A stretch of DNA of 16,761 nt, from NCBI RefSeq assembly GCF_003334255.1, contig NZ_QOWU01000077.1, one strand, 5' to 3'. The position numbers were made by a program, and so were the translations under genes. The stretch's first letter is position 1. Each line of letters starts with the position of its first letter. This DNA is from Escherichia coli. GTDB taxonomy: Bacteria > Pseudomonadota > Gammaproteobacteria > Enterobacterales > Enterobacteriaceae. Shown here in pieces: positions 8,918 to 9,904 of the stretch. Below the pieces are notes generated by a model, which had not been told where the DNA came from, searched no databases, and saw only the letters and a program-made list of their open reading frames with translations.

Positions 8918-9904
8918 TCAGGCGTTGGCGTCTTTGACTTCGCGGATGATGTCCTGGTACTCGCGCAATTTCTGCGGAGTCATCATACGGCGCTGATCGT
9001 CAAGCACGACACCGCCCACTTCATCGGCAATATGCTGCGCAGATTGCAGCATCAGCTTGAAGTTCTGCAGCTCGTCACCGTAAGACGGTACCTGCATAAA
9101 GATAGTGACACCCGGAGTAGTGAAATCCTTCATTTCAGGATCAAAGGTTCCCGGTTTCACCATATTCGCCAGGCTGAATAACGCCGGGCCGCTGCCATCC
9201 GGGCTAAGATGACGATGGTAAATATTCATATCGCCAAAAATGAAGCCCGCTTGTTGAATGCTGTTAAGAAGCAGTTCACCGTTTAGCTCGCTACCGTGAT
9301 GCGCCGCGACGTTCATGATAATCACCGCTTCTTTGCGCTTCGGTTTATCCATAACTGGAGCAGGTTCCGCTACAGGCTCAGGCTGTGGTGCCGCTACGGG
9401 TTCTGCAGGCTGGAAAGCCTGTTGTGCCGGTTGCGGTGCTGAATGCACAGGCTGCGGCGCTGGCGCGACCTGTGGCGAAACTGGCTGCTGCAACGGCTGT
9501 TCAGGCTGCGGCTGATAGGCAGGCTGCTGCACCGGCTGCGCTGGATGCGGAGCATGTTGCGGCGGTACCTGCGCTTCAGGCGGCTGCTGGACCGGTTGAC
9601 GCGGCTGCGCAGACGCATAAGGCGGTTGGTACTGGTGTTGCGGCGACGGACGAGCAGCCTCATGCTCCTGAGCGTTAGCCGGGGCATGATTCACGCGGTG
9701 AACACGAACCTCACCAACGCCCTCATCATCTTCGACATCCTCGTCATAAGAATCGTCGTCACGTTTTGACTTCATTCGTTTTAATGGCCGATCGCGGAAC
9801 ATAGAAGATCGTTCTTTACGGCTGGTCCAGAAACCATGTACCAGTAAAGCGATTATGGCGATCGCGCCAACAATGATTAATATCAGACGCAAATCCTGCA
9901 TCAT
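8918..9904 (-). CDS. zipA: Cell-division protein ZipA (FtsZ membrane anchor), 328 aa
   Basis: Track ORF 8918..9955; start placed at the ATG-ATG-CAG codons at 9904 ([26 protein letters not shown]...), giving an N-terminal TM anchor, a charged region, a long P/Q-rich linker and a C-terminal FtsZ-binding domain; 328 aa matches ZipA. Confidence 0.92.
9335..9645. repeat. GC-rich low-complexity coding repeat (ZipA Pro/Gln-rich linker)
   Basis: Reiterated GCTGC / GGCTG / CAGCC-type units that encode ...[55 protein letters not shown]...; this generates stop-free spurious ORFs in four other frames (9315..9515+, 9385..9678+, 9394..9687-, 9443..9769+). Boundaries are approximate. Confidence 0.8.

Follow-up and report, generated by a model that had tools for sequence, protein, structure and literature searches.

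A GC-rich stretch of Escherichia coli DNA, at positions 9335 to 9645 of the 16,761 nucleotides analysed here (the window), codes for the Pro/Gln-rich flexible tether of the cell division protein ZipA, an ordinary feature that has been known as a flexible tether since the late 1990s. In our reading, which we hold to be almost certainly correct, this segment is the coding DNA of a disordered Pro/Gln tether, the ORFs that overlap it in other frames are passive, and its length changes through in-frame insertions and deletions between short direct repeats. What the segment encodes, how the ORFs arise from its composition, their lack of conservation, and the in-frame polymorphism together with its junction sequences were each demonstrated, and we found no evidence against this reading.

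Results

The GC-rich segment encodes the P/Q domain of ZipA

The zipA coding sequence lies on the minus strand at 8918..9904 (328 amino acids and a stop codon) and is 100% identical in nucleotides to MG1655 zipA across its 987 bp. Its product matches the NCBIfam equivalog TIGR02205 (septum_zipA) over profile positions 1–284 of 284 and scores 419.1 bits (E = 1.4e-125), where the cutoff is 119.65. PDB entry 9iue matches residues 1–328, i.e. the full-length sequence, while entries 1f46, 1f47, 1f7w, 1y2f and 1y2g match from residue 185 or 189 to residue 328 (E from 1e-88 to 6e-93). The identity to MG1655 zipA, the TIGR02205 match and the PDB matches all agree with the first-pass annotation, made from the sequence and from a list of its ORFs, in which 9335–9645 was assigned to the ZipA P/Q linker. 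The zipA frame extends upstream to a GTG at 9955, corresponding to a protein of 345 aa; the annotation starts the gene at the ATG at 9904. The gene is essential and is annotated in 5,426 of 5,426 complete E. coli genomes. The long ORFs of the window agree with the gene order of MG1655, which runs xapR, xapB, xapA, yfeN, yfeR, yfeH, ypeB, ligA and continues with zipA, cysZ, cysK, ptsH, ptsI, crr, pdxK and yfeK, and the cysZ-zipA-ligA neighbourhood is kept in the annotated regions of MG1655, O157:H7 and three further strains.

The published limits of ZipA comprise a periplasmic N-terminus (residues 1–6), a transmembrane helix (7–28), a charged domain (29–85), the PQ domain (86–185) and a globular FtsZ-binding domain (186–328) (PMC6904479, citing Ohashi et al. 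2002). Placed on the minus strand of the window, the transmembrane anchor falls at 9821..9886, where the translation displays a hydrophobic run that is invariant in 13 enterobacterial orthologues. The charged domain, K/R-rich and then D/E-rich, follows at 9650..9820, and the P/Q domain or flexible linker, the segment considered here, at 9350..9649. The C-terminal globular domain occupies 8921..9349, as its match to solved structures indicates. The order of anchor, charged and P/Q-rich regions is evident both in the translation with its profile of P+Q fraction and in the published limits, and positions 9335..9645, which encode residues 87–190 on the minus strand, nearly coincide with the published P/Q domain. 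According to Ohashi et al. 2002, as cited in PMC6904479, the P/Q domain is experimentally unstructured; it is argued in PMC6904479 that it is perhaps more compact than a free tether.

Composition, not a periodic repeat, sets the word bias of the linker

The 100 residues of the P/Q domain include 31 P, 24 Q, 16 A and 9 V. With P or Q at 55% of its positions and A or V at another 25%, the linker is encoded mostly by CCN, CAR, GCN and GTN codons (the main ones being CAG, CCG, CCT and GCG), and this in turn accounts for the GC richness of its DNA, for its CAGCC/GCAGC-type words and for the fewer stop codons in the other five frames. The GC fraction is 0.65 at 9335..9645 compared with 0.496 window-wide, and 150-nt windows between 9350 and 9699 have values of 0.64–0.69 compared with about 0.45–0.50 nearby. 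On the plus strand, the word GCTGC occurs 9 times in the region (28.9 per kb vs 2.55 per kb in the rest of the window, an 11-fold enrichment), GGCTG occurs 11 times (35.4 vs 1.22 per kb, 29-fold) and GGCTGC 7 times (22.5 vs 0.18 per kb, about 120-fold). CAGCC is found on the zipA sense strand only, with 0 occurrences on the plus strand of the region.

The first-pass annotation had described GC-rich, reiterated GCTGC/CAGCC units here. The GC content and the word enrichment are as it said, but there is no tandem array and the term repeat is too strong. Tandem Repeats Finder, run on 9200..9800 with a minimum score of 30, detected no array in the K-12 allele, and a repeat search returned only an imperfect 29-nt family (66–83% identity) whose spacings of 24–54 nt are all multiples of 3. 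Pairs of identical k-mers (k = 8, 10, 12) are not in excess relative to either synonymous recoding or codon-order shuffling (P = 0.19–1.0), and there are no identical 12-mers within the linker. The linker is a low-complexity segment in which the word bias is set by the residues and their dominant codons, and it contains no periodic repeat. The segment had also been called stop-poor in several frames; the stop counts in the five non-zipA frames (1, 1, 4, 2 and 4 per 103 codons) are indeed low, but only as far as a GC content of 65% predicts (about 2.6 per frame by our arithmetic).

Four alternate-frame ORFs are by-products of ZipA composition

Four overlapping ORFs of 66–108 aa are present in the ORF listing exactly as first described. 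ORF 1 (66 aa, Gly/Ala/Cys-rich; 9315..9515), ORF 2 (97 aa, Ala-rich, with a GTG start; 9385..9678) and ORF 4 (108 aa, Arg/Leu-rich; 9443..9769) lie on the plus strand, antisense to zipA, while ORF 3 (97 aa, Arg/Ser-rich; 9394..9687) lies on the minus strand, that is the zipA strand, out of frame. Their Gly/Cys, Ala, Arg/Ser and Arg/Leu compositions are a mirror image of the Pro/Gln/Ala codons of the linker.

As a null model we used 2,000 synonymous recodings of ZipA residues 60–200, with codon usage taken from 12 window genes. Recoding yields 3.06±0.63 alternate-frame ORFs of 60 aa or more (P(>=4) = 0.20), and the longest ORF is expected to be 141±21 aa compared with the 108 aa observed (P(longest >=108 aa) = 0.91). 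Since recoding gives a similar number and length of ORFs, we can conclude that the composition of the ZipA linker generates the four overlapping ORFs passively, as by-products. The window as a whole holds 46 non-genic ORFs that reach 60 aa or more, the longest of which (213 aa) is antisense to ligA, and 8% of 311-bp segments overlap at least four of them; the cluster at the linker is in the upper tail for the window, but it is not unique.

The first-pass annotation had proposed that codon usage and conservation would both single out the zipA frame, and only conservation did so. On a CAI-like index the zipA linker frame scores 0.68, ORFs 1–4 score 0.69, 0.68, 0.60 and 0.41, respectively, and reference genes lie at 0.64–0.80. 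ORFs 1 and 2 therefore score like the zipA frame, and the value for ORF 4 is below that of every reference gene. Codon log-odds likewise fail to part the zipA linker frame from ORFs 1 and 2, with only ORFs 3 and 4 being low.

Conservation was read from a codon alignment of eight Escherichia alleles, namely those of K-12, O157:H7, two other E. coli strains, three representatives of cryptic lineages and E. albertii. All four ORFs are intact in the K-12 and O157 alleles, but in one or more Escherichia lineages each is disrupted by a stop or by loss of the start codon. ORF 1 has lost its start (ATA) and has two internal stops in E. albertii, and its K-12 stop is absent at the aligned position in alleles L008 and L025. 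The GTG start of ORF 2 is GCG in L008, L025 and L006, with an internal stop in L025. ORF 3 keeps its ATG in 8/8 of the Escherichia alleles examined, while its central part is strongly divergent and an internal stop is present in Escherichia sp. MOD1-EC7003. ORF 4 has lost its start in L016, L025, L008 and L006 and is interrupted even within E. coli, where the TCA codon of the substitution P148S creates an internal stop in the alleles of strains 323_BP0014 and EM10-18-28. A scan of the four ORFs against NCBIfam gave no family match, and no Shine-Dalgarno-like purine run was seen by eye in the 25 nt upstream of each start. A literature search for antisense or overlapping genes at zipA returned nothing relevant, only a table of sigma-54 binding sites unrelated to the linker. 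The view that these alternate-frame ORFs are not genes is therefore upheld: they are expected from composition, they are not conserved across Escherichia and they have no NCBIfam match.

Some of these ORFs have entered the protein databases

The ghost ORFs are more than a display artefact, as some annotation pipelines have deposited them. An exact-sequence look-up in a collection of 15 billion proteins found ORF 4 as a 'hypothetical protein' in many E. coli records, with the 108-aa form on 139 contigs, a variant on 226 contigs, and a truncated form of 71 aa that derives from the alleles with the internal stop. In UniRef, and in records of Shigella flexneri and Klebsiella pneumoniae, fragments of ORF 2 carry the name 'regulatory protein AlgP'. 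The exact sequences of ORFs 1 and 3 are absent from the collection. The locus is a clean example of a low-complexity, GC-rich coding segment seeding spurious protein database entries.

Linker length is polymorphic in frame within E. coli

That linker length may differ between strains was anticipated from the sequence, and E. coli does carry in-frame classes of 987, 999 and 888 bp. Our census covered 5,428 zipA records in 5,426 complete genomes and drew on identity bands together with 100 rows sampled at even spacing. At least 99% identity to the 987-bp allele, a band which rules out a 12-bp gap, was found for 3,069 records, and the other 2,359 fall within the 95–99% band. A first evenly spaced sample contained 22 alleles of 987 bp, 17 of 999 bp and one of 888 bp, and a second contained 33 of 987 bp, 25 of 999 bp, one of 994 bp and one of 888 bp. 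Across complete E. coli records, about 57% of the alleles are thus of 987 bp (328 aa) and about 43% of 999 bp (332 aa), on the basis of bands and samples that may miss rare variants in the tail.

The two common classes differ at a single site. Alignment of K-12 with the alleles of O157:H7 E32511, JML285 and 323_BP0014, in both DNA and protein, places a single 12-bp unit GTGCAGCAGCCT (V125–P128) at 9521..9532 on the minus strand of the window, and in the 999-bp alleles a second unit, GTGCAGCAACC(C/T), is inserted after window position 9532, such that QPVQQP in K-12 becomes QPVQQPVQQP. The two units of the 999-bp allele are identical at 10/12 positions and both differences are synonymous; as they differ at 2/12 positions, the duplication is old. 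Extra residues are present at the same site in E. albertii and in alleles L008 and L025, with two or three copies of QPVQQP (an 18-bp unit) in these last two cryptic Escherichia alleles, while L016 has a single K-12-like unit. Given the extra units in relatives, the K-12 form would most simply be a deletion between two GTGCAGCA repeats, and the 987/999-bp dimorphism may accordingly be ascribed to this 8-nt repeat, whose copies are 12 nt apart.

The 888-bp allele of strain EM10-18-28 encodes a ZipA of 295 aa and lacks 111 bp in frame, exactly between two CAGCAGCC words. The K-12 counterpart of the missing DNA (residues 106–138) lies at 9491..9589 on the minus strand, where two copies of an 8-bp direct repeat, CAGCAGCC, flank it (9582..9589 and 9483..9490). 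The 999-bp parent of this allele is found with 100% identity in ST648, MS6198, ECONIH1 and similar strains. When the deletion allele was used as the query, only EM10-18-28 matched as 888 bp in one piece within the 30 best rows; the remaining 29 rows were two-piece matches to 999-bp alleles. The 295-aa protein is present on 23 contigs under several accessions, so this allele is real rather than a single assembly error. The 994-bp zipA of strain FCI17 is annotated as 'frameshifted', and its garbled stretch sits exactly at the 12-bp site; a frameshift in this essential gene is most likely a consensus error.

With three intact classes and one probable assembly error in the sample, length change looks rare and lineage-structured rather than frequent. 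The first-pass annotation had called the linker prone to in-frame variation by slippage. The in-frame variation is there, but it is rare and follows lineages, and the description fits the K-12 allele only weakly.

Composition is kept while sequence and length vary

Within the linker of the eight aligned Escherichia alleles, the variable sites are distributed 14/16/49 over zipA codon positions 1/2/3, and every indel keeps the frame and lies within the linker. The ratio of non-synonymous to synonymous variable codons is 26:34 in the linker vs 3:62 elsewhere, which suggests that constraint on the linker is relaxed yet not absent within Escherichia.

For a wider comparison we used a degenerate DNA pattern for the peptide FGDMNIYHR, which returned 22 loci from species-representative genomes. 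The spacer that separates GEVRVHR from the globular domain is 85–146 aa long in 16 enterobacterial alleles and orthologues and has a P+Q fraction of 0.42–0.58, while the N-terminal 70–73 residues and the C-terminal domain are constant in length. Different peptide repeats have been expanded in different genera: QQPVH in L007 (RIT691), QPQQPA in L012 (Pluralibacter gergoviae) and QPVQQP in L025 (Escherichia sp. E1V33). In distant gammaproteobacterial ZipA proteins the linkers are shorter, acidic and not P/Q-rich. Among orthologues, then, the linker fits the pattern of a disordered tether in which composition is conserved while length and sequence vary.

The zipA leader and other flanking features

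A block made up of the zipA leader (about 85 nt) and the first 20 or so codons is nearly invariant in nucleotides across Escherichia, Citrobacter, Enterobacter and Pluralibacter. Nucleotide identity is 96.6% at -85..-1 of zipA compared with 60.5% at -230..-86, and identity at third codon positions is 85% in codons 1–21 compared with 53–63% in other conserved parts of the protein. The block holds a small hairpin, UUGCC-GUGGU-GGCAA, and position -56, at which the T-to-A change zipAp56 raises ZipA levels (PMC3831641), falls within it. An Rfam search of the whole window at the gathering threshold returned two tRNAs only, and a search of the leader region (9800..10140) at E <= 1 returned no match. 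A consensus scan of 8800..10140 for promoters and terminators gave no sigma-70-like site; the scan also missed the clear terminator-like hairpin between zipA and ligA that is seen by folding. The end of cysK holds a published sigma-54 site.

Discussion

The linker appears to be maintained mainly for its composition and approximate length and less for its exact sequence, and selection of this kind would leave it tolerant of amino-acid changes and in-frame indels. The junction sequences suggest that the indels arise by replication slippage or by microhomology-mediated deletion, these being the most likely routes; for the 888-bp allele, the two copies of the 8-nt word involved would be those 111 nt apart. 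In natural populations a 4-residue indel of the linker is tolerated at high frequency (about 57:43 among complete E. coli records), and a circulating allele has a 37-residue in-frame deletion. This agrees with laboratory work, as Schoenemann and colleagues are said to have found in 2020 that experimental shortening of the linker is tolerated.

The main alternative to passive ORFs is that at least one of them is a real overlapping gene expressed in E. coli, either antisense or on the same strand out of frame. The intact ORFs of K-12 and O157, the retained ATG of ORF 3, the gene-like CAI-like values of ORFs 1 and 2, and the presence of ORFs 2 and 4 in public databases by way of some annotation pipelines could all be read in this way. 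The database names are, however, automatic ('hypothetical protein', or 'AlgP' with no family match found), and neither the number nor the length of the ORFs exceeds what the ZipA sequence generates. Their compositions, moreover, simply mirror the Pro/Gln/Ala codons, and the search for NCBIfam families and the inspection for Shine-Dalgarno-like runs both came up empty. Each ORF is broken in at least one close relative, ORF 4 within E. coli itself, and linker substitutions gather at zipA third codon positions. We consider such a gene very improbable. Slightly less remote, though still improbable, is the view of the segment as a hypermutable tandem-repeat locus of the contingency or VNTR type, at which linker length would switch often. 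Copy number does differ at one site (one or two of the 12-bp VQQP unit in E. coli, two or three of the 18-bp QPVQQP unit in cryptic Escherichia), linkers of other genera contain 3–5 tandem peptide repeats, and the one complete genome with a garbled frameshift, FCI17, has it precisely there. Against this, the K-12 allele has no array, no identical 12-mers and no excess of k-mer repetition, and the divergence of the 999-bp units points to an old duplication. The E. coli samples fall into essentially two length classes, each with its own identity band, plus one rare deletion, a pattern which fits a few old events better than frequent switching, and no out-of-frame allele of this essential gene was seen except the one annotated pseudogene, itself probably a consensus error.

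A third possibility, that foreign or inserted DNA, for example the remnant of a mobile element, makes up the GC-rich block, draws on the local jump in GC from about 0.45–0.50 to 0.65–0.69 and is effectively excluded. Every one of the 5,426 E. coli genomes has the block, in frame, within zipA, a block of like composition is present in every enterobacterial orthologue examined, and the GC excess follows directly from the Pro/Gln/Ala codons; there are no notable inverted or terminal repeats and no Rfam matches in the window besides the tRNAs. We thus retain the interpretation of the segment as tether-coding DNA with passive ORFs and occasional in-frame indels. There is a slim chance, about as small as that of a hypermutable locus, that E. 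coli sensu stricto might make a lineage-restricted overlapping product from ORF 3 or ORF 2, or that the 328-, 332- and 295-aa alleles might alter Z-ring tethering or the timing of division.

Comparison with known systems

The feature in the window is identical to the P/Q domain (residues 86–185) of E. coli K-12 ZipA (b2412; UniProt ZIPA_ECOLI), with no difference. The 332-aa allele (ZIPA_SHIDS type; found in O157:H7, IAI39, CE10, NU14 and APEC O18) is the same gene in the same context and with the same domains, but differs in its extra 12-bp unit, in having R120 for H120, and in scattered and mostly synonymous changes. The only link to AlgP, an Ala/Pro-rich histone-like protein of Pseudomonas, is the name that some annotations have put on the Ala-rich ORF 2, which is antisense to zipA, lacks an NCBIfam match and is not conserved; judged from ORF 2 itself rather than by comparison with AlgP, the label is probably an artefact of low-complexity similarity.

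The disordered C-terminal linker of FtsZ and other bacterial tethers conserve composition and approximate length while being hypervariable in sequence. The ZipA linker resembles that of FtsZ in that composition and approximate length are kept and sequence varies. The FtsZ linker differs in residing within a cytoplasmic protein and not forming a membrane tether, and the likeness implies no homology between the two.

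Nucleotide conservation around the zipA start codon

A conserved block lies at the 5' end of zipA, on the minus strand at 9842..9989 (zipA -85 to +63). The nucleotides of the leader and of approximately the first 21 codons are near-invariant in Escherichia, Citrobacter, Enterobacter and Pluralibacter. Across genera, upstream identity is 96.6% from -85 to -1 compared with 60.5% from -230 to -86, while third-position identity reaches 85% in codons 1–21 as opposed to 53–63% in the other conserved ZipA segments. The reading frame upstream of zipA appears open only because the nucleotides of the leader block are conserved. 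The block contains a TTGA(C/G)G box and a small hairpin (UUGCC-GUGGU-GGCAA). It also includes position -56 (window 9960), and zipAp56, a T-to-A mutation at zipA -56, is reported to raise ZipA levels (PMC3831641). There were no matches in an Rfam search of 9800..10140 at E ≤ 1, a consensus promoter scan (8800..10140) found no promoter in the block, and a search of the literature for a zipA leader returned nothing. One possibility is that the conserved block is a post-transcriptional control element that has not been described before.

The remainder of the divergent cysZ/zipA intergenic region is poorly conserved except for a second block, ATGTTCGAAAAAACAGCAAAAAGCACGATTT, which is kept across genera and is found on the minus strand at 10021..10051, about -117 to -147 of zipA.

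A putative terminator between zipA and ligA

A GC-rich hairpin, AACCCCCG-CUUGU-CGGGGGUU, occupies the minus strand at 8866..8888, in the gap between the zipA stop (8918) and the ligA start (8847), and is followed by a U run. The 76-nt segment containing it folds with a predicted energy of -23.1 kcal/mol (z = -2.2). The hairpin was not among the features reported by the promoter/terminator consensus scan of 8800..10140; together with its U run, it looks like an intrinsic terminator.

Ghost ORFs in the databases and in the window

Two ghost ORFs that run antisense to the zipA linker have been entered in public protein databases as proteins. Many E. coli records list the 108-aa ORF (9443..9769, plus strand) as a 'hypothetical protein', and entries from Shigella flexneri and Klebsiella pneumoniae, as well as some in UniRef, give fragments of the Ala-rich ORF (9385..9678, plus strand) the name 'regulatory protein AlgP'. 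Longer ghost ORFs occur elsewhere in the window: 213 aa antisense to ligA (7102..7743, plus strand), 164 aa antisense to yfeR (5012..5506, plus strand) and 138 aa antisense to ptsI (12887..13303, minus strand). Counting every non-genic ORF of 60 aa or more, the whole window holds 46.

zipA in other genome records

The zipA of E. coli FCI17 (NZ_CM172722.1, 101..1094) is annotated as a 994-bp pseudogene with a frameshift. The damage consists of five missing bases and four mismatches and falls exactly on the 12-bp VQQP repeat site. Because zipA is essential, the frameshift is probably an error in the assembly consensus. Within the collection of complete E. coli genomes, plasmid-labelled records hold 2 of the 5,429 zipA matches, and in at least one genome zipA occurs at two places. 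An enterobacterial-type zipA is also present on contig CACSKA010000009.1 of a genome labelled Chryseobacterium sp. 18061. Its domains are nearly identical to those of the Citrobacter sp. 18056 orthologue, both genomes come from one study, and the contig probably represents contamination or a mislabelled bin.

Previously described features in the window

The 3' end of cysK carries CTGGCATTACTGTTGCA, present as a single copy in the window (12041..12057, minus strand). It is listed as IA18, a sigma-54 binding site that lies within a gene and is antisense to cysK, and for which the nearest downstream gene is zipA (PMC4591121). At the left edge (1..152, plus strand) are two tRNA genes (Rfam RF00005), the first of which is truncated by the window end; the MG1655 annotation at the same place has tRNA-Val, tRNA-Lys and then the RtT sRNA feature.
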